IMG/VR virus record: IMGVR_UViG_2671180360_000014
Length of the DNA stretch: 13,050 nucleotides
From: a virus
Lineage: Duplodnaviria > Heunggongvirae > Uroviricota > Caudoviricetes
Strand: one strand, 5' to 3'
The translations under genes were made by a program, and so were the position numbers. The stretch's first letter is position 1. Each line of letters begins with the position of its first letter. This document shows, one piece after another, positions 1 to 13,050 of the stretch. The notes below the pieces were generated by a model that had not been told where the DNA came from, did not search any database, and saw nothing but the letters and a program-made list of their open reading frames with translations.

Positions 1-37
1 ATGCCACTTGCCCGTTATCTTTGCATTTTCATAAACG
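1..37. repeat. Left arm of 37-bp inverted repeat; candidate crossover site for the adjacent serine invertase
   Basis: Positions 1-37 (ATGCCACTTGCCCGTTATCTTTGCATTTTCATAAACG) are the exact reverse complement of 5727-5763. The repeat may continue beyond the window edge. Internal two-fold symmetry is weak (outer TTAT...ATAA only), so the exact core cannot be placed. Confidence 0.6.
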
Positions 38-540
38 AAAAAAAAAAACAACCCTCAGCATTACCTGTTGGGGTGCCTGTTCCATGGCCTTCAGCCACAC
101 CGCCAACAGGCTGGCTGAAATGCAACGGTGCGGCATTTTCTGCTGAAGAATACCCGGAACTGGCAAAGGCTTATCCAACAAATAAATTACCTGATTTACG
201 CGGTGAGTTTATTCGTGGATGGGATGATAGTCGTGGTATCGACAACGGGCGTGCGCTGCTTTCATCTCAAGGCCATTCACTCAGAGACCACTCACATAAC
301 CAGCAGATCTGGACAGGTTCAAATACAACATCGTCAACTATTGGTCAGGCCGGGAGTTATGCTCCGCTAGCAACTGGAGGGGATGGGGGGATTGCCTATA
401 CTGACCGGGAGCCTCAAAGCCTACCTTCAGCAGTAAGAGCTGTCAGCACTCGTGGGGTTGCTTCTGACAATGCAGCGAATATTGGCACTGAAACCCGCCC
501 GCGCAACATTGCATTTAACTACATCGTGAGGGCTGCATAA
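1..540 (+). CDS. Alternative tail-fibre C-terminal (variable) segment, tip A, with phage tail-collar-type motif; 5' end lies in the crossover repeat
   Basis: 179-aa ORF containing GWLKCNGAAFSAEEYPELAKAYPTNKLPDLRGEFIRGWDDSRGIDNGRALLSSQGHSLRDHSHN, the pattern of phage tail-collar domains at fibre C-termini. The first 12 codons are encoded by the inverted repeat, so the ATG at position 1 may not be the true start; the protein may be a fusion to an upstream constant part. Confidence 0.7.
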   Translation: MPLARYLCIFINEKKKQPSALPVGVPVPWPSATPPTGWLKCNGAAFSAEEYPELAKAYPTNKLPDLRGEFIRGWDDSRGIDNGRALLSSQGHSLRDHSHNQQIWTGSNTTSSTIGQAGSYAPLATGGDGGIAYTDREPQSLPSAVRAVSTRGVASDNAANIGTETRPRNIAFNYIVRAA

Positions 541-1142
541 TGACACAGGCAAAATTAAACAGTGAATTTATTGCCACAGTAGCGGGTGATATTACCGTCT
601 ATAACTATGACAACACGACACGGGAATACATTTCATCATCAACAGAATATCTTGCCGTTGGCGTCGGTATCCCGGCATGTTCTTGTTTAGATGCACCAGT
701 TACACATAAAGCTGGTTATGCAATCTGCCGTTCTGCAGATTTTAACTCATGGGAATATGTACCAGACCATCGCGGTGAAATCATCTATAGCACCGAAACA
801 GGAGAATCGAAAGAAATCACAGCTCCGGGTGATTACCCTGAAAATACAACCACTATCGCCCCGTTAACGCCATTCGATAAATGGGATGGTGAGAAATGGG
901 TGACGGATACCGAGGCACAGCATAGCGCCGCACTAGACGCGGCAGAAGCAAAGCGCCAGTCGCTGATTGATGCTGCAATGGCTTCCATCAGTCTGATTCA
1001 GATGAAATTACGGGCCGGGCGGAAGCTGACGCAGGCAGAAACCACCCGACTTAACGCTGTGCTGGATTACATTGACGCGGTGGAGGCAACAGATACCAGC
1101 ACCGCGCCTGATGTCATCTGGCCTGAACTGCCGGAGGCGTAG
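540..1142 (+). CDS. Tail fibre assembly chaperone (Tfa family) paired with fibre tip A
   Basis: 200-aa ORF. Start overlaps the upstream stop (TAATG) with a GAGG ribosome-binding site about 8 nt upstream. The C-terminus DKWDGEKWV...LNAVLDYIDAVEATDTSTAPDVIWPELPEA is a typical Tfa C-terminal domain. It sits directly downstream of a fibre tip, as in Mu U and e14 tfaE. Confidence 0.8.
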   Translation: MTQAKLNSEFIATVAGDITVYNYDNTTREYISSSTEYLAVGVGIPACSCLDAPVTHKAGYAICRSADFNSWEYVPDHRGEIIYSTETGESKEITAPGDYPENTTTIAPLTPFDKWDGEKWVTDTEAQHSAALDAAEAKRQSLIDAAMASISLIQMKLRAGRKLTQAETTRLNAVLDYIDAVEATDTSTAPDVIWPELPEA

Positions 1143-1915
1143 GCCATTCAATATCTGGCGCACCGGAAGTATCGACCAGTTCCAGTGCGTCCAGATAATC
1201 CAGCCACAAATTATATTGCACCAGTTCCTCACCTTTCAGGCGACCAATCGCCGCTTTACCAGGCCATTGCTTACTGTTTATGTATTCGTTGACCTGATTA
1301 ATCAATTGCTGCTTTTTCAGTTCGGCTGCGGCAATTTGTTCCTCATGAGTTGGCGGTGGAATATCAATCCATGCAGGCATTCCGTCGATGACACCTCTGT
1401 ATTTTCCTTCTGGTGCTTCCTTCATAAATTCGGCAGCAACAGTGTCGTCAATTTCGATTCCATCATCGGGCCATTCGCCGGATTCCTGATAAGCGATTTT
1501 AAGCTCCACAGGGAAAAACGCATTTTTATCGGCACTGAAAATATATTTCTGCATTTCTACCGTCCTATCGAAATATAACTGAATCTGTATTGCTGTGAGA
1601 TATCACTGGTTGCCACACGCCACGCTGAATTACTGATATGTTCAAAATTTACAGACAAAACCTGCGGGGCAGGAATCGACGGGTCTGACTGAACGGCATC
1701 AGACATAACACTGACTGAAACCATCGGCTGATTAGGGAATGGTATAGGGAAGTGTCCACTGATAAAGCGGGTCGTGTTTCCTGCAAAAGTGCCAAACTGA
1801 ACAATATATCCACCTGGTAGCCTGAACCATCCCGAACCAGAAGCGAATGCTCCCATATCCGGTATCTGATTATCTCCTGTGCCCACATCCCTTTTCGCCG
1901 CTTCTCCCAAACCAA
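660..1915. repeat. Copy 1 of a 1,256-bp perfect direct repeat (3' part of tfa-A, all of tfa-B, fibre tip B)
   Basis: ORF-track translations in several frames are identical between 660-1915 and 4471-5726 (constant offset 3811), implying near-100% nucleotide identity. Identity ends at 1915/5726 on one side and 660/4471 on the other. Confidence 0.85.
1114..1554 (-). CDS. Tail fibre assembly chaperone (Tfa family) paired with fibre H / tip B
   Basis: 146-aa ORF immediately downstream of H on the - strand (H stop 1557, tfa start 1554). C-terminus NLWLDYLDALELVDTSGAPDIEWPTPP is Tfa-like. Its 3' end overlaps the convergent tfa-A by 29 bp. Confidence 0.8.
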   Translation of the reverse strand: MQKYIFSADKNAFFPVELKIAYQESGEWPDDGIEIDDTVAAEFMKEAPEGKYRGVIDGMPAWIDIPPPTHEEQIAAAELKKQQLINQVNEYINSKQWPGKAAIGRLKGEELVQYNLWLDYLDALELVDTSGAPDIEWPTPPAVQAR

Positions 1916-2741
1916 GGTATGCGAGAAGACCGGCAACATCCTTTCCACTCAAATGAGTCAGCGTATTGTCCAGCGGTTGTTTACCTGCCAGCGCATTGTT
2001 AATGGTGGTGCTGAATTTCGGGTCATTGTTAATGGCCGCGGCAATTTCTTTCAGTGTGTCCAGCGTGTCAGGCGCACCGTTAATCAGAGCGGTAATAGCG
2101 GCCTGTACAAACGCAGTGGTCGCAATCCGCGTGGTGTTATTTCCTGCGGCAGGCGTCGGTGCTTTTGGTTCTCCGGTAAATGTCGGATTATGTTTCTGTG
2201 CATACTGGGTATGAGGGTCCTGTGCGGCAATGTGTTTGCTCATCTGGTCATCCACATACAGCCTTAATTCCAGGACTTCATCATCCACATATTTACGGGT
2301 CGCCAGTACCACCGACGGGTCGATTTTCAGCGTGATAGCTTCGGTATTCGTGACAACCAGAATCATGCGGATAGTCTGGGTACGACCACTGCCTTCCTGC
2401 AACTGCGGTTTGTACGTTTCCGGGCAGTTCGCCACCGCAATGAGTACGCCTTCATCATCATAAAGCCCAATCTCACGGATCCAGAATCCGCCCTCGTTCT
2501 CAGGGATGATTTGCTCCGCAATAATCTGACTCTGGTTGTTCGGGTCAACACTCAGAAGATTCAGCGGCGCGATGCGTTTCTGGTTAATCAGTTTTATCTG
2601 TGCCGGGTCTGGTGTCGGCAAGACACCATTCGCATCACCAACGGCCATTTGCGTCAGATTCAGCTTACTGCCGAGCATCGTCGCGTTAGCCAGCCGTGCT
2701 GCGCCCTGATTAGTCAGAATGGCGTAGTATTTCACTGTCAT
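1557..2741 (-). CDS. H: Tail fibre protein (P2 gpH-like N-terminus, tip B C-terminus)
   Basis: 394-aa ORF. The N-terminus MTVKYYAILTNQGAARLA...MAVGD...GGFWIREIGLYDDEGVLIAVAN...YKPQLQEGSGRTQT matches the conserved P2 H-family N-terminal domain. The start overlaps the stop of I (ATGA). Confidence 0.85.
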   Translation of the reverse strand: MTVKYYAILTNQGAARLANATMLGSKLNLTQMAVGDANGVLPTPDPAQIKLINQKRIAPLNLLSVDPNNQSQIIAEQIIPENEGGFWIREIGLYDDEGVLIAVANCPETYKPQLQEGSGRTQTIRMILVVTNTEAITLKIDPSVVLATRKYVDDEVLELRLYVDDQMSKHIAAQDPHTQYAQKHNPTFTGEPKAPTPAAGNNTTRIATTAFVQAAITALINGAPDTLDTLKEIAAAINNDPKFSTTINNALAGKQPLDNTLTHLSGKDVAGLLAYLGLGEAAKRDVGTGDNQIPDMGAFASGSGWFRLPGGYIVQFGTFAGNTTRFISGHFPIPFPNQPMVSVSVMSDAVQSDPSIPAPQVLSVNFEHISNSAWRVATSDISQQYRFSYISIGR

Positions 2742-3349
2742 GCGTTTACTCTCAGGTTATCAATTAAATGAATGGCCGAGGCCGGGAAATAATCCCCTCC
2801 GACAATAATGGCCTCCGGGGTGTAGGGATAAACCGTCAGGGCGTCGCCGTGATAGCATCCCGCACCGACAAAAATGTTGCCGGTTGTACTTAAACTGATA
2901 GCCAGTCCCGTCAGATGGCGGCTTGCAGGTTTTGCATCAGCAACGAGACGCTCCAGCTCCTGATACATTTCCTCGGTAATACCCTGCTCAAGCACGCCAA
3001 CAACGATGCGGAACGTCCCCGGCTCCTCGTTGAGCTGCCACCACTCCCTCACCTCAATCAGATAGCCGAGCGGCTCCACCACACGGCGAATCGCACCAAT
3101 AGTGCCCTTATGGCAGTGAATGAAATACGCATCGCGGATAACAGCGCGTTTTGTCGCTTCCGGCCACTTATCATCCCAGCGGTCAACCGAAAATGACCAC
3201 GCCAGCCACGGCAGCAGATTTGCCGGACAGGTATCCGGGTTCCACAGCTCACGAATACTGACCGGCGTTTTTTCAATTTCCGCACAGGCTCTTGCGGCGG
3301 CGACTTCAAGCGGTGATGAGCCGGTCGGCAGCAGGCGCGAATCACTCAT
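2738..3349 (-). CDS. I: Baseplate assembly protein gpI
   Basis: 203-aa ORF between J and H with coupled overlaps on both sides, matching the P2 J-I-H arrangement. N-terminus MSDSRLLPTGSSPLEVAAARACAEIEK is as I recall for the gpI family. Confidence 0.8.
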   Translation of the reverse strand: MSDSRLLPTGSSPLEVAAARACAEIEKTPVSIRELWNPDTCPANLLPWLAWSFSVDRWDDKWPEATKRAVIRDAYFIHCHKGTIGAIRRVVEPLGYLIEVREWWQLNEEPGTFRIVVGVLEQGITEEMYQELERLVADAKPASRHLTGLAISLSTTGNIFVGAGCYHGDALTVYPYTPEAIIVGGDYFPASAIHLIDNLRVNA

Positions 3350-4250
3350 CCGAGCCTCCGGTCACGACGCTGTATTCGGTGCAGAAAGACGCCTGCGTAC
3401 TGTTGAGCACAATGTCGGCCAGTGGTGCGGCCAGCTCGACACGCTGCACGCCTTCCACATGCAAAGCGGCATAAATGGCAGACAGACGGATGTCGCGCCC
3501 CAGCCGGTGCTGTGCCGTGATGTACGCTTCCAGTTTTTTCACGGCAGCAGCGCGGATGGGTTCGCTTTCAGGACCAGGGTAAAGGTAAAGCGTGGCGTTT
3601 ATCTGGTATTCAACGATGGCGGCAGACTGCACGGTCACGCGGTCGGCCACCGGCCTGACGTCCTCACCATTAAGGGCGTTGCGCACCACCGCCAGCAGGT
3701 CTTCGGATGCGATACCGTTATTTTCGCGAGACAGCACAGAGATAGTGACACAGGCCGGAGACGGACTGGTGACAGAGATATCCGCGACACGCCCGTCGGC
3801 ACTGCGACCATGATACTGATAGGCTCCCACTGACCCGGCGACGCTTAAACCTTCAAACGCCTGCTGAATACGCAGACGATAATCGGTGTCAGATTCCATC
3901 ACTGCCGGTGTCGGCGGGATAGTCGAATCATCTGCCGGGGTGATAATCAGGCGCGTGGTGTTGTAATTGGCACCAATCACATCAAGGTCATTACCGGCGG
4001 CACAGGCCAGCATTACCGCCCGTGCGGCCTCATTCACACGCTGACGCCAGATAAGCTCACGATAAGCATTTTCCTCCAGCAGTTTGACGAGAGGCTCAGA
4101 TTCCAGCATCAGGGTACGGGCGACCGCCTCCTGCTGGTCTTCCGGGTAAAGGGAAATCAGTGTCGCCTTGCGTTCGGCAAGAATGGTTTCAAAGTCCAGC
4201 TCCTCGACCACATCCGGTGCGGGTAGCTGGTTCAGGTCGATAATCGGCAT
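3342..4250 (-). CDS. J: Baseplate assembly protein gpJ
   Basis: 302-aa ORF, the same length as P2 gpJ, lying between W and I. It overlaps the I start by 8 bp. Confidence 0.85.
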   Translation of the reverse strand: MPIIDLNQLPAPDVVEELDFETILAERKATLISLYPEDQQEAVARTLMLESEPLVKLLEENAYRELIWRQRVNEAARAVMLACAAGNDLDVIGANYNTTRLIITPADDSTIPPTPAVMESDTDYRLRIQQAFEGLSVAGSVGAYQYHGRSADGRVADISVTSPSPACVTISVLSRENNGIASEDLLAVVRNALNGEDVRPVADRVTVQSAAIVEYQINATLYLYPGPESEPIRAAAVKKLEAYITAQHRLGRDIRLSAIYAALHVEGVQRVELAAPLADIVLNSTQASFCTEYSVVTGGSDE

Positions 4251-4254
4251 GGTT

Positions 4255-4497
4255 TCAACTCACAGGGATGGTTAACGAAAGTGGCTGGCCGGTGTCGTTG
4301 TGCTGACCGGTTAACGTGACCGTTATTCGCCCGTCAAAACTGCGCGCCGTGGTGACGGATGACAGGGTGACGCGGGGTTCCCATTTCAGCACCGCCATGT
4401 AACAGGCGACCTTAATCTGCAACTCAAGCGCCGGGGTCTGCGGCTGGTCAATCATTGACGCCAGCAAAAAGGCGTCGGTATCCCGGCATGTTCTTGT
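4255..4497 (-). pseudogene. W: Baseplate protein gpW fragment, N-terminally truncated at the repeat joint
   Basis: The reading frame is open from 4497 to the stop at 4255 but has no ATG; the ORF track starts it at TTG 4467. It is 70-80 codons against about 115 for gpW, and the upstream part runs into repeat copy 2 at 4471. It sits directly upstream of J as in P2. Confidence 0.55.
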
Positions 4498-4953
4498 TTA
4501 GATGCACCAGTTACACATAAAGCTGGTTATGCAATCTGCCGTTCTGCAGATTTTAACTCATGGGAATATGTACCAGACCATCGCGGTGAAATCATCTATA
4601 GCACCGAAACAGGAGAATCGAAAGAAATCACAGCTCCGGGTGATTACCCTGAAAATACAACCACTATCGCCCCGTTAACGCCATTCGATAAATGGGATGG
4701 TGAGAAATGGGTGACGGATACCGAGGCACAGCATAGCGCCGCACTAGACGCGGCAGAAGCAAAGCGCCAGTCGCTGATTGATGCTGCAATGGCTTCCATC
4801 AGTCTGATTCAGATGAAATTACGGGCCGGGCGGAAGCTGACGCAGGCAGAAACCACCCGACTTAACGCTGTGCTGGATTACATTGACGCGGTGGAGGCAA
4901 CAGATACCAGCACCGCGCCTGATGTCATCTGGCCTGAACTGCCGGAGGCGTAG
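4471..4953 (+). pseudogene. 5'-truncated copy of the tail fibre assembly gene tfa-A (3' 483 bp only)
   Basis: Corresponds to 660-1142 of the intact gene at 540-1142. The first 120 bp, the ribosome-binding site and the start codon are missing. The track ORF 4711-4953 is identical to the last 80 aa. Confidence 0.6.
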
Positions 4954-5365
4954 GCCATTCAATATCTGGCGCACCGGAAGTATCGACCAGTTCCAGTGCG
5001 TCCAGATAATCCAGCCACAAATTATATTGCACCAGTTCCTCACCTTTCAGGCGACCAATCGCCGCTTTACCAGGCCATTGCTTACTGTTTATGTATTCGT
5101 TGACCTGATTAATCAATTGCTGCTTTTTCAGTTCGGCTGCGGCAATTTGTTCCTCATGAGTTGGCGGTGGAATATCAATCCATGCAGGCATTCCGTCGAT
5201 GACACCTCTGTATTTTCCTTCTGGTGCTTCCTTCATAAATTCGGCAGCAACAGTGTCGTCAATTTCGATTCCATCATCGGGCCATTCGCCGGATTCCTGA
5301 TAAGCGATTTTAAGCTCCACAGGGAAAAACGCATTTTTATCGGCACTGAAAATATATTTCTGCAT
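4925..5365 (-). CDS. Tail fibre assembly chaperone, second identical copy of tfa-B
   Basis: 146-aa translation identical to that of 1114-1554. Confidence 0.75.
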   Translation of the reverse strand: MQKYIFSADKNAFFPVELKIAYQESGEWPDDGIEIDDTVAAEFMKEAPEGKYRGVIDGMPAWIDIPPPTHEEQIAAAELKKQQLINQVNEYINSKQWPGKAAIGRLKGEELVQYNLWLDYLDALELVDTSGAPDIEWPTPPAVQAR

Positions 5366-5367
5366 TT

Positions 5368-5766
5368 CTACCGTCCTATCGAAATATAACTGAATCTGTA
5401 TTGCTGTGAGATATCACTGGTTGCCACACGCCACGCTGAATTACTGATATGTTCAAAATTTACAGACAAAACCTGCGGGGCAGGAATCGACGGGTCTGAC
5501 TGAACGGCATCAGACATAACACTGACTGAAACCATCGGCTGATTAGGGAATGGTATAGGGAAGTGTCCACTGATAAAGCGGGTCGTGTTTCCTGCAAAAG
5601 TGCCAAACTGAACAATATATCCACCTGGTAGCCTGAACCATCCCGAACCAGAAGCGAATGCTCCCATATCCGGTATCTGATTATCTCCTGTGCCCACATC
5701 CCTTTTCGCCGCTTCTCCCAAACCAACGTTTATGAAAATGCAAAGATAACGGGCAAGTGGCATCAT
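5368..5766 (-). CDS. Tail-fibre C-terminal (variable) segment tip B, cassette copy; 5' end lies in the crossover repeat and it lacks the H constant part in cis
   Basis: 132-aa ORF whose last 119 aa (VGLGEAAKRDVGTGDN...ISIGR) are identical to the C-terminus of H (1557-2741). Its first 13 codons (MMPLARYLCIFIN) are encoded by the inverted repeat. Confidence 0.65.
   Translation of the reverse strand: MMPLARYLCIFINVGLGEAAKRDVGTGDNQIPDMGAFASGSGWFRLPGGYIVQFGTFAGNTTRFISGHFPIPFPNQPMVSVSVMSDAVQSDPSIPAPQVLSVNFEHISNSAWRVATSDISQQYRFSYISIGR
5727..5763. repeat. Right arm of 37-bp inverted repeat; candidate crossover site about 30 bp upstream of the invertase gene
   Basis: Exact reverse complement of 1-37. 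Its position next to the invertase start resembles gixR-gin in Mu and the e14 pin arrangement. Confidence 0.6.
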
Positions 5767-5793
5767 CTCCGGTTTTTATTCAGGGGGATGCTC

Positions 5794-6387
5794 ATGTTTA
5801 TTGGCTATGTACGCGTATCAACAAATGACCAGAACACGGAATTGCAGCGTAACGCGCTGGAATGCGCGGGATGTGAGCGGATTTTTGAGGACAAAATCAG
5901 CGGCACGAAGTCCGACAGGCCGGGGCTGAAAAAACTGCTCAGGACATTATCGGAGGGGGATACACTGGTAGTCTGGAAGCTGGACCGGCTGGGGCGTAGT
6001 ATGCGGCATCTGGTCATTCTGGTTGAGGAACTGCGCGAACGTGGCATTAATTTTCGCAGCCTGACGGATGCTATTGATACCAGCACGCCGATGGGGCGTT
6101 TTTTCTTTCATGTGATGGGTGCCCTGGCTGAAATGGAACGAGAACTCATTGTCGAGCGGACTCGGGCCGGGCTGGAAGCGGCCAGAGCCAAAGGTCGTAT
6201 TGGTGGCAGACGTCCTAAACTCACCACGAGTGAGTGGGAGCAGGCCGGGCGTTTGCTGGCTGCAGGGGAGTCACGTCAACGCGTGGCACTGATTTTTGAT
6301 ATTGGTCTGTCCACGCTCTATAAAAAATTTCCCTCATCAGCGACAAAGAATAAATTGTGTCATCCCTTAGCCAACCGGGACAAATAG
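5794..6387 (+). CDS. Serine DNA invertase, Gin/Pin/Cin/Hin family (resolvase/invertase fold with C-terminal HTH)
   Basis: N-terminus MFIGYVRVSTNDQ carries the catalytic serine motif. TLVVWKLDRLGRS, MGRFFFHVMGALAEMERELIVERT and the C-terminal GLSTLYKKFP helix-turn-helix are hallmark motifs of this family. I prefer the ATG at 5794 (GGGGGA about 5 nt upstream) over the track start at 5788. Confidence 0.9.
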   Translation: MFIGYVRVSTNDQNTELQRNALECAGCERIFEDKISGTKSDRPGLKKLLRTLSEGDTLVVWKLDRLGRSMRHLVILVEELRERGINFRSLTDAIDTSTPMGRFFFHVMGALAEMERELIVERTRAGLEAARAKGRIGGRRPKLTTSEWEQAGRLLAAGESRQRVALIFDIGLSTLYKKFPSSATKNKLCHPLANRDK

Positions 6388-6446
6388 CCTGACATCTCCG
6401 GCACAACTGAAAATATCACTCACCCATTAACCACGGAGTTAAACGG

Positions 6447-7637
6447 ATGAGTGACTATCATCACGGCGTGCAGGTGCTGGAGATTAACGACGGCACCCGC
6501 GTCATTTCCACCGTATCCACTGCCATTGTCGGCATGGTCTGCACGGCCAGCGATGCGGATGCGGAAACCTTCCCCCTCAATAAACCGGTGCTGATTACCA
6601 ATGTGCAGAGTGCAATTGCAAAGGCTGGTAAAAAAGGCACGCTGGCGGCGTCGTTGCAGGCCATCGCTGACCAGTCAAAACCGGTCACCGTTGTCGTGCG
6701 TGTGGAAGACGGCACCGGCGAAGACGAGGAAACGAAACTTGCGCAGACCGTTTCCAATATCATCGGCACCACCGACGAAAACGGCCAGTACACCGGACTG
6801 AAAGCCCTGCTGGCGGCGGAGTCGGTAACCGGTGTTAAACCGCGTATTCTCGGCGTGCCGGGACTGGACACCAAAGAGGTGGCTGTTGCACTGGCATCAG
6901 TCTGTCAGAAGCTGCGCGCTTTCGGGTATATCAGCGCATGGGGCTGTAAAACCATTTCCGAGGTGAAAGCCTACCGTCAGAATTTCAGCCAGCGTGAGCT
7001 GATGGTCATCTGGCCGGATTTCCTCGCATGGGATACGGTCACCAGTACTACCGCCACCGCGTATGCCACCGCCCGTGCGCTGGGTCTGCGTGCCAGAATT
7101 GACCAGGAGCAGGGCTGGCATAAAACGCTGTCCAATGTCGGGGTGAACGGTGTTACCGGCATCAGCGCCTCTGTATTCTGGGATTTGCAGGAGTCCGGCA
7201 CCGATGCTGACTTGCTTAACGAGTCAGGCGTCACAACGCTGATTCGCCGCGACGGTTTCCGCTTCTGGGGTAACCGTACCTGCTCTGATGACCCGCTGTT
7301 CCTCTTTGAAAACTACACCCGCACCGCGCAGGTGCTGGCCGACACGATGGCTGAGGCGCACATGTGGGCGGTGGACAAGCCCATCACCGCAACGCTGATT
7401 CGCGACATCGTTGACGGCATCAATGCCAAATTCCGTGAGCTGAAAACAAACGGCTATATCGTGGATGCGACCTGCTGGTTCAGCGAAGAATCCAACGATG
7501 CGGAAACCCTCAAGGCCGGAAAACTGTATATCGACTACGACTATACACCGGTGCCTCCTCTTGAAAACCTGACCCTGCGCCAGCGTATTACCGATAAATA
7601 CCTGGCAAATCTGGTCACTTCGGTTAACAGCAATTAA
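6447..7637 (+). CDS. FI: Contractile tail sheath protein gpFI
   Basis: 396 aa, the same length as P2 FI, with N-terminus MSDYHHGVQVLEINDGTRVISTV. A GGAG ribosome-binding site lies 8 nt upstream. It is the first gene of an FI-FII-E-T-U-D array. Confidence 0.92.
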   Translation: MSDYHHGVQVLEINDGTRVISTVSTAIVGMVCTASDADAETFPLNKPVLITNVQSAIAKAGKKGTLAASLQAIADQSKPVTVVVRVEDGTGEDEETKLAQTVSNIIGTTDENGQYTGLKALLAAESVTGVKPRILGVPGLDTKEVAVALASVCQKLRAFGYISAWGCKTISEVKAYRQNFSQRELMVIWPDFLAWDTVTSTTATAYATARALGLRARIDQEQGWHKTLSNVGVNGVTGISASVFWDLQESGTDADLLNESGVTTLIRRDGFRFWGNRTCSDDPLFLFENYTRTAQVLADTMAEAHMWAVDKPITATLIRDIVDGINAKFRELKTNGYIVDATCWFSEESNDAETLKAGKLYIDYDYTPVPPLENLTLRQRITDKYLANLVTSVNSN

Positions 7638-7649
7638 GGAGCCTGACCG

Positions 7650-8168
7650 ATGGCAATGCCGCGCAAACTCAAGTTAATGAACGTCTTTCTGAACGGCTAC
7701 AGCTATCAGGGCGTTGCAAAGTCCGTCACGCTGCCAAAACTGACCCGTAAGCTCGAAAACTATCGCGGTGCGGGGATGAACGGCAGCGCACCGGTAGACC
7801 TCGGCCTTGATGACGATGCGCTGTCAATGGAGTGGTCGCTCGGGGGCTTCCCGGATTCGGTTATCTGGGAGCTCTACGCCGCAACCGGTGTGGATGCCGT
7901 ACCGATTCGTTTTGCAGGCTCTTACCAGCGCGACGATACCGGCGAAACGGTGGCCGTCGAGGTGGTCATGCGTGGACGTCAGAAAGAAATCGACACCGGC
8001 GAGGGTAAACAGGGAGAAGACACCGAGTCGAAAATCTCCGTGGTCTGCACCTATTTCCGGTTGACGATGGACGGTAAGGAGCTGGTCGAAATCGACACCA
8101 TCAACATGATTGAGAAGGTGAACGGCGTCGACCGGCTGGAGCAACACCGCCGCAATATCGGCCTGTGA
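7650..8168 (+). CDS. FII: Tail tube protein gpFII
   Basis: 172 aa, the same length as P2 FII, with N-terminus MAMPRKLKLMNVFLNGYSYQGVAKSV. An AAGGAG ribosome-binding site lies 8 nt upstream. Confidence 0.92.
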   Translation: MAMPRKLKLMNVFLNGYSYQGVAKSVTLPKLTRKLENYRGAGMNGSAPVDLGLDDDALSMEWSLGGFPDSVIWELYAATGVDAVPIRFAGSYQRDDTGETVAVEVVMRGRQKEIDTGEGKQGEDTESKISVVCTYFRLTMDGKELVEIDTINMIEKVNGVDRLEQHRRNIGL

Positions 8169-8224
8169 TTTTCATACGGTCAGCCAGGCTGACCGGTTAA
8201 CCCTGATTCAGAAGTGAGAAAACC

Positions 8225-8500
8225 ATGAACAAAGAAAATGTCATTACCCTGGAAAATCCGGTCAAACGTGGTGAGCAGGTTATCGAACAGGTCACGCTGA
8301 TGAAACCCAGTGCCGGGACGCTGCGCGGTGTCAGTCTGGCTGCGGTCGCAAACTCCGAAGTCGATGCACTGATTAAAGTGCTGCCGCGCATGACGGCACC
8401 GATGCTGACCGAGCAGGAAGTCGCCGCGCTGGAACTGCCTGACCTTGTGGCGCTGGCCGGTAAGGTGGTCGGTTTTTTGTCGCCGAACTCGGTGCAGTAA
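8225..8500 (+). CDS. E: Tail assembly chaperone gpE (zero-frame product)
   Basis: 91 aa, the same length as P2 E. It sits between the tube gene and the tape measure gene and ends just after the slippery heptamer. Confidence 0.85.
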   Translation: MNKENVITLENPVKRGEQVIEQVTLMKPSAGTLRGVSLAAVANSEVDALIKVLPRMTAPMLTEQEVAALELPDLVALAGKVVGFLSPNSVQ

Positions 8501-8652
8501 CGTTTCCGAAAAATCTCTCGGTCGATGACCTGATGGCGGATGTGGCAGTGATATTTCACTGGCCGCCATCAGAACTGTATCCCATGAGCCTGACCGAACT
8601 CATCACATGGCGCGAAAGGGCGCTCCGGCGAAGCGGAAACACGAATGAGTAA
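8225..8652 (+). CDS. E': Tail assembly chaperone gpE+E', made by programmed -1 ribosomal frameshift at 8473-8479
   Basis: After slippage at T TTT TTG, the -1 frame reads VAELGAVTFPKNLSVDDLMADVAVIFHWPPSELYPMSLTELITWRERALRRSGNTNE and stops at 8650-8652, overlapping the T start at 8645. Total length is 85+57 = 142 aa, as I recall for P2 E+E'. Confidence 0.75.
8473..8479 (+). promoter_or_regulatory. -1 programmed frameshift slippery heptamer T_TTT_TTG
   Basis: X XXY YYZ heptamer in the E zero frame (GGT TTT TTG) near the 3' end of E, the conserved position for tail-chaperone frameshifts between the tube and tape measure genes. Confidence 0.75.
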
Positions 8653-11092
8653 CAATGTAAAATTACAGGTATTGCTCAGGGCTGTTGACCAGGCATCCCG
8701 CCCGTTTAAATCCATCCGCACAGCGAGCAAGTCGCTGTCGGGGGATATCCGGGAAACACAAAAATCACTGCGCGAGCTGAACGGTCAGGCATCCCGTATT
8801 GAGGGATTTCGCAAGACCAGTGCACAGCTCGCCGTGACTGGTCATGCACTTGAAAAGGCTCGACAGGAGGCCGAAGCCCTTGCCACACAGTTTAAAAACA
8901 CCGAACGTCCGACCCGTGCTCAGGCGAAAGTGCTGGAATCCGCAAAGCGTGCGGCGGAGGACTTACAGGCGAAATATAACCGCCTGACGGATTCCGTTAA
9001 ACGCCAGCAGCGGGAACTGGCCGCTGTGGGAATTAATACCCGCAATCTTGCACATGATGAGCAGGGGCTGATAAACCGTATCAGTGAAACCACCGCACAA
9101 CTTAACCGTCAGCGCGACGCACTGGCGCGTGTCAGTGCACAACAGGCAAAACTTAACGCAGTCAAACAGCGTTATCAGGCCGGAAAGGAACTGGCCGGAA
9201 ATATGGCCTCAGTGGGCGCTGCCGGTGTGGGGATTGCTGCTGCGGGAACGATGGCCGGAGTTAAGTTGCTGATGCCCGGTTATGAGTTTGCGCAGAAAAA
9301 CTCAGAATTGCAGGCCGTGCTAGGTGTGGCAAAAGACTCCGCCGAAATGACCGCACTACGCAAACAGGCGCGCCAGCTCGGCGACAATACCGCCGCCTCG
9401 GCGGATGATGCGGCCGGTGCACAGATAATCATCGCGAAAGCGGGTGGGGATGTTGATGCCATTCAGGCGGCAACGCCGGTCACGCTGAATATGGCGCTGG
9501 CGAACCGCCGCACGATGGAAGAAAACGCCGCCCTGCTGATGGGGATGAAATCCGCCTTTCAGCTTTCAAACGATAAGGTCGCTCATATCGGGGATGTTCT
9601 CTCCATGACGATGAACAAAACCGCCGCCGATTTTGACGGCATGAGCGATGCGCTGACCTATGCCGCACCTGTGGCAAAAAATGCCGGTGTCAGCATTGAA
9701 GAAACCGCCGCAATGGTCGGGGCGCTGCATGATGCAAAAATCACAGGCTCAATGGCGGGGACGGGAAGCCGTGCCGTGTTAAGCCGCCTGCAGGCACCGA
9801 CGGGAAAAGCATGGGATGCACTCAAAGAGCTTGGAGTGAAAACCTCAGACAGCAAGGGAAACACCCGGCCAATATTTACCATTCTGAAAGAAATGCAGGC
9901 CAGTTTTGAGAAAAACCGGCTCGGTACTGCCCAGCAGGCTGAATACATGAAAACTATTTTCGGGGAGGAGGCCAGCTCAGCCGCCGCCGTGCTGATGACT
10001 GCCGCCTCAACCGGAAAGCTGGACAAACTGACCGCTGCGTTTAAAGCCTCAGACGGGAAGACTGCCGAGCTGGTAAATATCATGCAGGACAACCTCGGCG
10101 GTGACTTTAAGGAGTTTCAGTCCGCTTATGAGGCGGTGGGGACAGACCTGTTTGACCAGCAGGAAGGCGCACTGCGTAAGCTCACGCAGACGGCCACAAA
10201 GTATGTGTTAAAACTCGACGGCTGGATCCAGAAAAACAAATCACTGGCGTCAACCATCGGCCTCATTGTCGGTGGCGCGCTGGCGCTTATTGGCATCATC
10301 GGTGCCATTGGTCTTGTAGCCTGGCCGGTTATCACTGGCATCAATGCCATCATCGCGGCAGCAGGCGCAATGGGGGCAGTCTTCACGACGGTTGGCAGTG
10401 CTGTTATGACCGCCATCGGGGCGATTAGCTGGCCGGTTGTGGCCGTGGTGGCCGCCATTGTCGCCGGGGCGTTGCTTATCCGTAAATACTGGGAGCCTGT
10501 CAGCGCATTCTTTGGCGGTGTGGTGGAAGGGCTGAAAGCGGCATTTGCGCCGGTGGGGGAGCTGTTCTCGCCACTTAAGCCGGTGTTCGACTGGCTGGGC
10601 GAAAAGTTACAGGCCGCGTGGCAGTGGTTTAAAAACCTGATTGCCCCGGTCAAAGCCACTCAGGACACCCTGAACAGTTGCCGTGACACGGGGGTCATGT
10701 TCGGGCAGGCACTGGCTGACGCGCTGATGCTGCCGCTTAATGCGTTCAACAAACTGCGCAGCGGTATTGACTGGGTACTGGAAAAACTCGGTGTTATCAA
10801 CAAAGAGTCAGACACACTTGACCAGACCGCCGCCAGAACTCAAGCCGCCACGTATGGCAGCGGTGGTTATATTCCGGCGACCAGCTCTTATGCAGGCTAT
10901 CAGGCTTATCAGCCGGTCACGGCACCGGCTGGCCGCTCTTATGTGGACCAGAGTAAAAACGAATATCACATCAGCCTGACGGGGGGGACTGCGCCGGGGA
11001 CACAGCTCGACCGCCAGTTACAGGATGCGCTCGAAAAATACGAGCGGGATAAACGTGCGCGCGCCCGTGCCAGCATGATGCATGACGGTTAA
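8645..11092 (+). CDS. T: Tail tape measure protein gpT
   Basis: 815 aa, the same length as P2 T. It has a coiled-coil-rich N-terminal half and a hydrophobic glycine/alanine-rich stretch (LIVGGALALIGIIGAIGLVAWPVITGINAIIAAAGAMGAV). Its position after E/E' fits. Confidence 0.92.
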   Translation: MSNNVKLQVLLRAVDQASRPFKSIRTASKSLSGDIRETQKSLRELNGQASRIEGFRKTSAQLAVTGHALEKARQEAEALATQFKNTERPTRAQAKVLESAKRAAEDLQAKYNRLTDSVKRQQRELAAVGINTRNLAHDEQGLINRISETTAQLNRQRDALARVSAQQAKLNAVKQRYQAGKELAGNMASVGAAGVGIAAAGTMAGVKLLMPGYEFAQKNSELQAVLGVAKDSAEMTALRKQARQLGDNTAASADDAAGAQIIIAKAGGDVDAIQAATPVTLNMALANRRTMEENAALLMGMKSAFQLSNDKVAHIGDVLSMTMNKTAADFDGMSDALTYAAPVAKNAGVSIEETAAMVGALHDAKITGSMAGTGSRAVLSRLQAPTGKAWDALKELGVKTSDSKGNTRPIFTILKEMQASFEKNRLGTAQQAEYMKTIFGEEASSAAAVLMTAASTGKLDKLTAAFKASDGKTAELVNIMQDNLGGDFKEFQSAYEAVGTDLFDQQEGALRKLTQTATKYVLKLDGWIQKNKSLASTIGLIVGGALALIGIIGAIGLVAWPVITGINAIIAAAGAMGAVFTTVGSAVMTAIGAISWPVVAVVAAIVAGALLIRKYWEPVSAFFGGVVEGLKAAFAPVGELFSPLKPVFDWLGEKLQAAWQWFKNLIAPVKATQDTLNSCRDTGVMFGQALADALMLPLNAFNKLRSGIDWVLEKLGVINKESDTLDQTAARTQAATYGSGGYIPATSSYAGYQAYQPVTAPAGRSYVDQSKNEYHISLTGGTAPGTQLDRQLQDALEKYERDKRARARASMMHDG

Positions 11093-11106
11093 GGAGGTGA
11101 CGAAAA

Positions 11107-11586
11107 ATGATGCTCGCGTTAGGTATGTTTGTTTTTATGCGCCAGACGCTGCCACACCAGACCATGCAGCGTGAATCAGATTATCGCTGGCCGTCAAATT
11201 CCCGTATCGGCAAACGGGATGCCTTTCAGTTTCTCGGTGTGGGTGAGGAAAACATCACGCTGGCCGGTGTGCTTTATCCCGAACTGACCGGCGGCAAGCT
11301 GACGATGACCACGCTCAGGCTGATGGCAGAGGAAGGCCGGGCGTGGCCGTTGCTGGATGGCACCGGCATGATTTACGGCATGTATGTCATCAGTAAGGTG
11401 AGTGAAACAGGGAGTATTTTCTTTGCAGACGGCACACCCCGAAAAATTGATTTTACGCTGTCGCTCACCCGCGTTGATGAATCACTGGCCGCGCTTTATG
11501 GCGATATCGGTAAACAGGCGGAATCGCTCATCGGTAAGGCTGGCAATATGGCGACTAAATTCACGGGTATGACGGAGGCGGGATAA
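11107..11586 (+). CDS. U: Tail protein gpU
   Basis: 159 aa, the same length as P2 U. An AAGGAGG ribosome-binding site lies 9 nt upstream. Its stop overlaps the D start (TAATG). Confidence 0.88.
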   Translation: MMLALGMFVFMRQTLPHQTMQRESDYRWPSNSRIGKRDAFQFLGVGEENITLAGVLYPELTGGKLTMTTLRLMAEEGRAWPLLDGTGMIYGMYVISKVSETGSIFFADGTPRKIDFTLSLTRVDESLAALYGDIGKQAESLIGKAGNMATKFTGMTEAG

Positions 11587-12750
11587 TGCTGGATGCGCTG
11601 ACATTTGATGCAGGCAGTACGCTGACGCCGGATTACATGCTGATGCTCGACAGCAAGGATATTACCGGCAATATCAGCGACCGTCTGATGAGCATGACCC
11701 TGACGGATAACCGGGGCTTTGAGGCTGACCAGCTTGATATTGAACTGAACGACGCCGACGGGCAGGTCGGGCTACCGATTCGTGGCGCTGTCCTGACGGT
11801 GTATATCGGCTGGAAAGGTTTTGCCCTGGTATGCAAAGGGAAATTTACCGTTGATGAGGTTGAACACCGGGGCGCGCCGGATGTGGTTACCATCCGCGCC
11901 CGGAGTGCAGATTTCCGCGGGACGCTCAATTCCCGCCGTGAAGGCTCCTGGCATGACACCACGCTCGGTGCGATTGTTGAGGCGATAGCCTCCCGTAACA
12001 GGCTGGAAGCCAGTGTCGCTCCGTCACTGGCCGGAATTAAAATCCCGCACATCGACCAGTCGCAGGAGTCTGATGCGAAATTCCTGACCCGTCTTGCAGA
12101 ACGCAACGGCGGTGAGGTGTCGGTAAAAATGGGAAAACTGTTGTTTCTCAAAGCGGGGGCAGGGGGTGACGGCCAGCGGTAAAAAAATCCCGCAGATTAC
12201 CATCACCCGCAGCGACGGCGACCGTCATCATTTTGCGATTGCTGACCGTGGAGCCTATACCGGCGTAACGGCAAAGTGGCTTCACACCAAAGACCCGAAG
12301 CCGCAAAAGCAGAAGGTAAAACTGAAACGCAAAAAGAAAGAAAAACACCTGCGCGCACTGGAGCACCCAAAAGCGAAACCGGTCAGGCAGAAGAAAGCGC
12401 CAAAAGTACCGGAAGCGCGCGAAGGTGAATATATGGCCGGTGAGGCTGACAATGTTTTTGCCCTGACCACGGTATATGCCACGAAAGCGCAGGCCATGCG
12501 CGCCGCTCAGGCGAAGTGGGATAAACTGCAACGGGGCGTTGCGGAGTTCTCCATCAGCCTGGCTACCGGTCGGGCAGATATTTACACGGAAACACCGGTT
12601 AAAGTGTCAGGCTTTAAGCGCGTCATAGACGAGCAGGACTGGACAATCACTAAGGTGACACATTTTCTGAATAATAGCGGCTTCACGACGTCCCTGGAGC
12701 TTGAGGTCAGGCTTTCTGATGTGGAGTACGAAACAGAAGATGATGAGTGA
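11586..12750 (+). pseudogene. D: Tail protein gpD, disrupted by a +1 frame change in a G-run (or a homopolymer sequencing error)
   Basis: Two overlapping ORFs (11586-12182 in frame 0, 12166-12750 in frame +1) span 1165 nt, one more than the 1164 nt needed for 387 aa plus stop. Removing one G from GGGGG at 12155-12159 joins them into a 387-aa protein (...LLFLKAG/QGVTASGKKIPQ...), the length I recall for P2 gpD. Confidence 0.7.
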
Positions 12751-12768
12751 TGTATTTATTTTATCTGT

Positions 12769-12797
12769 TTGTTTTATAAGGATAAATTAACTAAAAT
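12769..12797 (+). promoter_or_regulatory. Candidate sigma70-type promoter for ogr (-35 TTGTTT, 17-bp spacer, -10 TAAAAT)
   Basis: TTGTTT at 12769-12774 and TAAAAT at 12792-12797 with a 17-bp spacer in the AT-rich D-ogr intergenic region. GGAAGAGG follows at 12816-12823 as a ribosome-binding site 8 nt before the ATG at 12832. Confidence 0.35.
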
Positions 12798-12831
12798 GGC
12801 ACCATCAACAAAACCGGAAGAGGTGCTCGCG

Positions 12832-13050
12832 ATGTTTCATTGTCCTTTATGCCAGCATGCCGCACATGCGCGTACAAGTCGCTATATCACTGACACGACA
12901 AAAGAGCGTTATCACCAGTGTCAGAACGTGAATTGCAGCGCCACGTTCATCACTTATGAGTCGGTACAGAGATACATCGTGAAGCCGGGAGAAGTCCACG
13001 CCGTGAGGCCGCACCCGTTGCCGTCAGGGCAGCAAATTATGTGGATGTAA
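12832..13050 (+). CDS. ogr: Late-gene transcriptional activator Ogr (zinc-finger, Ogr/Delta family)
   Basis: 72-aa product MFHCPLCQHAAHARTSRYITDTTKERYHQCQNVNCSATFITYESVQRY... with the Cys-X2-Cys...Cys-X4-Cys arrangement, matching P2 Ogr as I remember it. The track ORF 12769-13050 begins at an upstream TTG that lacks a ribosome-binding site. Confidence 0.9.
   Translation: MFHCPLCQHAAHARTSRYITDTTKERYHQCQNVNCSATFITYESVQRYIVKPGEVHAVRPHPLPSGQQIMWM

Follow-up and report, generated by a model that had tools for sequence, protein, structure and literature searches.

The apparent duplication in the window analysed here, a stretch of 13,050 nucleotides carrying the tail module of a P2-like prophage, is very probably a scaffolding or gap-filling artefact in which the invertible segment of one prophage was assembled once in each orientation, and corresponds to no duplication or rearrangement of the DNA. 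The window is bases 29-13078 of the E. coli draft contig CYDK01000007.1 (GCA_001285005.1), and comparison of the two records found mismatches at only 3 of the 13,050 bases, all at positions 4468-4470, where the public record has NNN and the window has AAA.

The repeat and the scaffold gap

The first-pass annotation of the window had described a perfect direct repeat of 1,256 bp, and this is present in the sequence as given, positions 660-1915 being identical to 4471-5726 over 1,256 nt with the identity extending no further on either side. The genes in and around the two copies are as follows.

54-540, + strand: Hv-A, an alternative C-terminal part of the tail fibre (Pfam Collar)
540-1142, + strand: tfa-A, encoding the chaperone for tail-fibre assembly that goes with Hv-A (Pfam Caudo_TAP)
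1114-1554, - strand: tfa-B, the chaperone paired with Hv-B (Pfam Caudo_TAP)
1557-2741, - strand: H, the tail-fibre gene, in its 'flop' state, with the constant part (Hc, 1916-2741) in frame with Hv-B (1557-1915)
2738-3349, - strand: P2 I baseplate gene (Pfam Tail_P2_I)
3342-4250, - strand: J baseplate gene (Pfam Baseplate_J)
4255-4467, - strand: the C-terminal 70 codons of W (gp25-like), the gene being cut where the contig piece ends
4468-4470 (contig positions 4496-4498), no strand: scaffold gap, NNN in the public record and AAA in the window
4471-5726, + strand: copy 2 of the repeat, made up of the 1,256 nt at the distal end of the invertible segment, in the 'flip' state adjoining the invertase
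up to 4953, + strand: 3' part of tfa-A in copy 2
4925-5365, - strand: tfa-B in copy 2
5368-5726, - strand: orphan Hv-B in copy 2
6447-13050, + strand: remaining P2-like tail module (FI, FII, E/E', T, U, D, ogr)

The genes W-J-I-H lie in the opposite orientation to FI-FII-E-T-U-D, and D is split by a frameshift. This opposition had escaped the first-pass annotation, as had a 37-nt inverted repeat, the serine invertase gene at 5794-6387 and the crossover sites on which the two repeat copies end at the right.

From this arrangement a novel joint at 4470/4471 had been read, truncating both W and a tfa gene. Copy 2 does open inside tfa-A and does abut the W fragment on the - strand (4255-4467), but the joint falls within what the public record gives as NNN. 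The W fragment agrees with intact W genes to 4467 only (it ends ...CAGCAA, where intact genes go on CGAGCC), and the Ns of the record begin directly after that base. The joint is therefore not a sequenced one, and what look like two truncated genes are the ends of contigs. The 70-aa W product occurs in one contig only among about 15 billion proteins. The contig is 161,721 nt long and the odd part is its opening 4,495 nt, which begin 65 nt inside the invertase flank, the left contig end being 28 nt beyond window position 1. An N-run at the joint and a structure at a contig end are what is expected of an assembly artefact, and the sequenced novel junction expected of a genuine rearrangement is not found.

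It could be argued that the NNN hides a short true junction between W and tfa-A in a real inverted partial duplication, with head-to-head copies of the tail module of which one is locked in 'flop' and one is in 'flip', and such a structure could have originated by replication template switching or an illegitimate join. The scaffolder did set the two pieces side by side and estimated the gap between them at just 3 nt, and destruction of the left crossover site of copy 1 would lock that copy and explain a stable coexistence of both junction types. Against this, not one base of the junction has been sequenced, and the structure stands at the extreme end of a contig, 65 nt into the flank, as would be the case at a branch of the assembly graph. 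We regard a duplication of this kind as highly improbable.

The invertible segment and its invertase

The segment is bounded by the following features.

1-37, - strand: the flank next to the invertase (R), present here a second time and inverted (reverse complement of 5727-5763)
38-53, no strand: A-rich 16-nt block AAAAAAAAAAACAACC, where all relatives have the crossover core and half-site TTGGTTTGGGAGAAGG
1902-1927, + strand: crossover site between Hv-B and Hc, TTCTCCCAAACC AA GGTATGCGAGAA, with copy 1 of the repeat ending on the central AA (1915)
5713-5738, + strand: crossover site by the invertase, TTCTCCCAAACC AA CGTTTATGAAAA, with copy 2 ending on the central AA (5726)
5794-6387, + strand: serine DNA invertase of the Pin/Gin/Cin/Hin (Din) family (Pfam Resolvase and HTH_7)

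The predicted invertase matches Pfam Resolvase (7.6e-53) and HTH_7 (8.7e-13), as well as the Gin structures 3UJ3/4M6F with E = 1e-94 over residues 1-182. As in other members of the Din family, a small serine recombinase adjoins the segment and the 26-bp sites are made up of imperfect 12-bp inverted half-sites and a 2-bp core. Site 5713-5738 has exactly the sequence of pixR of e14, the reference sequences for pixL and pixR being those of Table 3 of PMC3241671. The right edges of both repeat copies fall on the central AA of these sites (1915 and 5726), and the right boundary of the repeat is an invertase crossover site, not the end-point of a homologous recombination or duplication, whilst the left edge is simply the start of the second assembled piece. 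The partial tandem duplication that had been offered as one origin of the repeat is unsupported, there being no sequenced junction and the right boundary being a crossover site. The invertase itself was also considered as the maker of the left joint and rejected because no pix-like half-site was found near 660 or 4467; the same absence speaks against the inverted duplication.

In the 'flop' state H is a 394-aa ORF with a Phage_tail_fib N-terminus and Gp53-like_C, arranged as in E. coli E-93, and Hv-A is silent in the orientation seen in the window. In genomes of the 'flip' state (L004 and others) it is Hv-A that is fused to the constant part, giving a 442-aa H with Collar. Both orientations give an in-frame full-length fibre, as expected in the Din family, and both junction types are found in one contig. 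Since the junctions of both orientations were assembled, both orientations were present in the DNA that was sequenced.

At the left end of the window a 37-nt inverted repeat pairs 1-37 with 5727-5763, and this copy of the R flank, which holds the R half-site TTTTCATAAACG at 26-37, extends 28 nt beyond the window to where the contig ends, making 65 nt altogether. Within the complete copy of the segment, the site at 26-51 retains the flank half alone, its core and inner half being the A-rich block, and in the relatives L003, L004 and L010 both crossover sites are intact and in inverted orientation. In the block 13 of the 16 nt are substituted, and the sequence on either side is perfectly conserved. 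Among 5,426 complete E. coli genomes none gave a match above 90% over the full length, and the 180-aa protein with the motif EKKKQP is known from this contig alone, the normal allele VGLGEG occurring in 42 contigs. The block is probably another mistake of assembly or gap closure, and so dense a cluster of changes resembles an error and not mutation, which again counts against the inverted duplication. If the block were real, inversion would be blocked and two physical copies would be favoured. Ambiguity codes, a mixture consensus and a bit-encoding error were each considered as its source, and each is inconsistent with it. The gene called over the left edge of the window begins 3 nt upstream of it.

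The most likely origin of the artefact is the following. The strain would carry one ordinary P2-like prophage beside focA-pflB, in which H would consist of the constant part and the alternative C-termini Hv-A and Hv-B, with tfa-A and tfa-B respectively, on a segment of about 1.9 kb that the adjacent Pin/Gin-type serine invertase would flip between two 26-bp crossover sites. The assembler would have built one piece per orientation, the first being window 1-4467 together with 28 nt leftward (W'-J-I-Hc, then Hv-B tfa-B tfa-A Hv-A, then 65 nt of invertase flank, in reverse complement) and the second being window 4471-13050 (tfa-A' tfa-B Hv-B, then the invertase and FI...ogr pflB, forward). A 3-N gap would then join the pieces so that the shared segment is collinear, giving an apparent perfect 'direct repeat'. 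That this strain has a single copy and a population of mixed orientation is our inference, and so is the precise step taken by the assembler, which may have been, for example, the extension of a gap-filler into the segment. This account gives no reason for a paired-end scaffolder to set the end of W beside the segment. Mis-joining by the assembler across a repeat had been among the origins first suggested, and it is upheld in a sharper form, with an NNN gap joining contigs that hold alternative orientations of one invertible segment; the zero divergence between the copies was correctly taken as a pointer to an artefact.

Related prophages and the search for the joint

In the closest relative, the 3.6-Mb contig L010, an intact prophage occupies the same focA-pflB site, and each piece is there once and in the canonical order, with an identity of 100% from W to Hc, 100% over the whole segment and 99.92% over the right arm. 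The content of the window is thus explained by a single-copy arrangement, as would be expected of an artefact, and the occurrence of all pieces as single copies in near-identical relatives is a further argument against the inverted duplication. A normal flop-state prophage, that of E-93, is collinear with window 1-4470, and normal flip-state prophages are collinear with window 4471-13050. Homologous recombination between two P2-like elements together with an illegitimate join, another of the origins first put forward, gains no support, as in the closest relatives one intact prophage accounts for all the unique content, each part of it mapping once. Beyond ogr the contig runs on into chromosomal pflB, and the run from the invertase through ogr to pflB is free of Ns, an argument for a right arm in single copy and against the second right arm of an inverted duplication.

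When an 800-nt query spanning the joint was compared with 5,426 complete E. coli genomes, none covered at least 80% of it. The joint was also absent from the phage records searched, and was not found by wildcard-gap scans (N{0,30}) of metagenome_contigs and genome_contigs. Exact-pattern scans of genome_contigs and viral_contigs gave no match and are uninformative, because the pattern held the artificial AAA. The recovery of the junction in an independent assembly, which would be expected of a genuine rearrangement, did not occur, and its absence from every other assembly searched weighs against the inverted duplication. Only one complete genome, GPEC673, has W/J beside a tfa gene, and it was rejected as a sharer of the joint as its J'/tfa deletion is a different one. 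An 80-aa fragment of tfa-A in other assemblies was likewise rejected as the same breakpoint, SRR9160196 having an O'/tfa-A joint with the break at window-equivalent 580 and UARY01 being an assembly full of frameshifts. That other P2-like prophages have end-points in or beside tfa-A (J'/tfa in GPEC673, O'/tfa-A in SRR9160196) is a point in favour of the inverted duplication.

A double lysogen might also be envisaged, with two near-identical P2-like prophages whose switches are opposed and whose remaining parts were collapsed by the assembler, so that the scaffold mixes both. The assembly graph would be equal to that of a mixed population, and as the invertible segment is 100% identical in several unrelated strains, identity alone fails to exclude two elements. 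However, the right arm runs uninterrupted into a single flank, pflB, where an arm in two copies would be expected to break at attR, and both flank copies in the window carry one variant (A at 5743, T at 21) that L010 and L007, the two closest relatives compared, are without, having G at 5743. Two such prophages are very doubtful, and even if they were present 4470/4471 would stay an unsequenced scaffold gap, as it is under the preferred reading of one prophage assembled in both orientations.

Comparison with known systems and significance

The switch resembles the Pin/P-segment switch of e14 in E. coli K-12 and the wider Din family (Gin/G segment of Mu, Cin/C segment of P1, Hin of Salmonella) in that a serine invertase adjoins the segment, and as in e14 the 26-bp sites have a central AA, one being identical to pixR and the other close to pixL. 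Also as in Din switches, the constant part of the fibre is in frame with either C-terminus, each with its own Caudo_TAP chaperone, and both orientations are found in natural genomes. Unlike those of e14, Mu and P1, this switch belongs to a P2-like prophage of the Peduovirus type, where it is placed between H and FI, and unlike in the e14 Pin and Din systems one of its sites is corrupted in this contig (38-53).

Within clonal E. coli cultures, the tail-fibre segments of P2-like prophages have been found in both orientations together (Goldberg et al. 2014, PMC4272514), which favours the reading preferred here. Those prophages likewise have an invertase and inverted repeats, and their coexisting orientations are detectable in short-read data; there the variants were quantified from read pairs, whereas the mixture here is deduced from an assembly that holds both junction types. 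In its short N-run, its position at a contig end, its zero divergence and a single-copy reference that accounts for its content, the structure is like scaffolding or gap-filling duplications in short-read drafts. It differs from them in that the repeat is direct and not inverted, as the reverse-complemented piece holds the inverted segment and so mimics a tandem-like duplication.

Were the inverted duplication true, it would preserve the trace of an aberrant event at a locus under invertase control. A Pin-type tail-fibre switch of host range in a P2-like prophage is already well-known biology, and the case is a cautionary one, in that invertible segments present both ways can enter draft assemblies twice, and where Ns are silently made into bases (NNN to AAA) a scaffold gap passes for a new joint made by recombination, with a truncated gene on either side. 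The truncated products are already in protein databases as real, the W fragment as WP_149004354.1 (70-aa) and the fibre fragment as WP_053885506.1 (180-aa, EKKKQP).

Gene content of the window

The genes identified with Pfam were as follows.

Pfam assignments across the window (coordinates, strand, feature)
1-540, +, tail-fibre variable part, Collar domain
540-1142, +, Caudo_TAP chaperone
1114-1554, -, Caudo_TAP chaperone
1557-4467, -, P2 H, I and J with a C-terminal fragment of W
C-terminus of 1557-2741, -, tail-fibre variable part, gp53-like C
5788/5794-6387, +, serine recombinase
after the recombinase, +, P2 FI onwards

For the recombinase there is a match to two structures of the Gin invertase, 3UJ3 and 4M6F (E = 1e-94). 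As seen in intact relatives, W-J-I-H and FI-FII-E-T-U-D share one strand in P2-like phages, but in the window these two blocks are oriented towards each other. The late control gene D is cut into ORFs of 198 aa and 194 aa (11586-12182 and 12166-12750), the split lying at ~12150-12160 where the G-run GCGGGGGCAGGGGG has one added G compared with the closest relatives (L010 and L007), a difference due either to a sequencing error in the homopolymer or to a genuine frameshift that inactivates the gene. At 8225-8652 lies the tail-chaperone pair, made up of E with 91 aa and a short ORF for GpE, 39 aa long according to the gene calls of the source contig; this P2 E/E' arrangement is usual and is associated with programmed frameshifting.

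The repeat as part of an invertible segment

The first-pass annotation had reported a perfect direct repeat, and self-comparison bears this out, with 660-1915 and 4471-5726 identical over 1,256 nt without extension on either side. The same comparison revealed a further match that had been missed, window 1-37 matching 5727-5763 exactly in reverse complement, a stretch that directly follows copy 2. Both copies of the repeat terminate in TTCTCCCAAACCAA (1902-1915 and 5713-5726), followed directly by GGTATGCGAGAA, from the constant part of the tail-fibre gene H (Hc), after copy 1 and by CGTTTATGAAAA, from the invertase flank, after copy 2. The stretches 1902-1927 and 5713-5738 are 26-bp crossover sites of the Din family. 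Compared with the pixL and pixR sequences tabulated in PMC3241671, the site at 5713-5738 has exactly the sequence of e14 pixR and that at 1902-1927 is similar to pixL. Both right repeat edges therefore lie at the central AA, the point of cleavage and strand exchange by Din-family invertases. What looks like a repeat is an invertible tail-fibre segment, of which it comprises the distal 1,256 nt.

The two halves of the window correspond to the two states of such a segment. E. coli E-93 has a normal prophage with the gene order of window 1-4470, where the variable part Hv-B is joined to H (flop) and the invertase, FI and the rest are on the left. The order in window 4471-13050 is that of normal prophages having H joined to Hv-A (flip), in which Hv-B is silent and adjoins the invertase. 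Therefore, the window is a reverse-complemented flop, from mid-W to the invertase flank, then a flip from mid-tfa-A (the chaperone gene of Hv-A) onwards. The shared segment looks direct-repeated because one of the halves is in reverse complement and contains the segment in inverted form.

The variable part that is silent, whichever it is, keeps an open frame: it begins with ATGATG within the flank of the invertase (MMPLARYLCIFIN...) and continues in frame through the crossover site (window 5727-5766, - strand; window 1-37 with 3 nt upstream). For this reason many genomes list the orphan copy as a 'phage tail protein' of 132 or 180 aa.

The joint as a scaffold gap

Among ~15 billion proteins the product of the 70-aa W fragment occurs in one contig only, and exact look-up gave a single source, CYDK01000007.1 of GCA_001285005.1 (161,721 nt), of which position 29 is the window start. 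Window and record differ only at the three positions 4468-4470, AAA in the window and NNN in the record, and the NNN was reproduced by a second, independent retrieval of the contig. Intact W genes match the window to 4467 and then read CGAGCC..., therefore the joint is a gap left by scaffolding where two contig pieces were put together. The novel joint proposed at 4470/4471 is no real sequence feature, and what was taken for truncation of W and tfa-A is the end of a contig in each case. The first piece makes up the terminal 4,495 nt of the scaffold and includes 65 nt of the invertase flank before it stops, at the sort of position where the two orientations make an assembly graph branch.

The joint was found in none of 5,426 complete E. 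coli genomes (at least 80% coverage of an 800-nt query spanning it), was absent from the phage records searched and was not found in genome and metagenome collections scanned with 0-30 arbitrary bases at the gap. A P2-like prophage of E. coli GPEC673 (NZ_CM142805.1; L001 9266-9616 / 8689-9309) is built differently: a truncated J adjoins a tfa gene, so that I, Hc, Hv-B and tfa-B are absent, and ISEc12 is inserted at another place in this prophage. In the Logan contig SRR9160196_21 (L016 3178-4054) a capsid-scaffold (GPO) fragment adjoins tfa-A at window-equivalent 580, implying either a large deletion or a further mis-assembly, with one end within the invertible segment.

One prophage or two copies

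The relative L010 (GCA_026614445.1) carries a single intact prophage on a 3.6-Mb contig, likewise located at focA-pflB, with W to Hc, the invertible segment and the right arm each present once and in canonical order.

Identity of L010 to the window
W to Hc, 100%
whole invertible segment, 100%
right arm, 99.92%

On this comparison a single prophage explains all the window content. Both copies of the invertase flank carry the same variant (A at 5743, T at 21), where L010, L007 and E-93 have G at 5743, and its sharing, when the two closest relatives compared (L010 and L007) lack it, supports a single copy. Further support comes from the source contig, which is free of Ns from the invertase via ogr into pflB and so speaks against a second right arm.

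It could be supposed that a real inverted partial duplication is present, and here the complete copy is relevant for its crossover site on the left. At 38-53 this site reads AAAAAAAAAAACAACC, an A-rich 16 nt in place of TTGGTTTGGGAGAAGG, the crossover core and half-site present in all relatives and found as expected between Hc and Hv-A in L010. If real, this block would lock its copy and two physical copies would be required for both junction types. It has 13 substitutions in 16 nt with the expected length and perfectly conserved flanks, is confined to this contig, and changes VGLGEG to EKKKQP in the database protein WP_053885506.1. The block is probably a second assembly error, from gap closure or consensus, and its position is exactly the element common to all four junctions. 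A real inverted partial duplication is very improbable. A double lysogen is equally improbable, and even with two prophages no sequence would have been read across the joint. Of the origins first put forward, namely recombination, tandem duplication and mis-joining by the assembler, the last is the one supported: both the duplication and the joint most probably arose during assembly, scaffolding or gap filling.

The switch in the sequenced strain

The Hc-Hv-B and Hv-B-invertase flank junctions occur in one assembly, implying that the DNA sequenced contained the segment in both orientations and suggesting an active switch. Coexistence of both orientations is known from clonal E. coli cultures, including for P2-like prophages (PMC4272514). 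The system is already known: the locus represents an ordinary host-range switch of the Pin type, acting on the tail fibre of a P2-like prophage.
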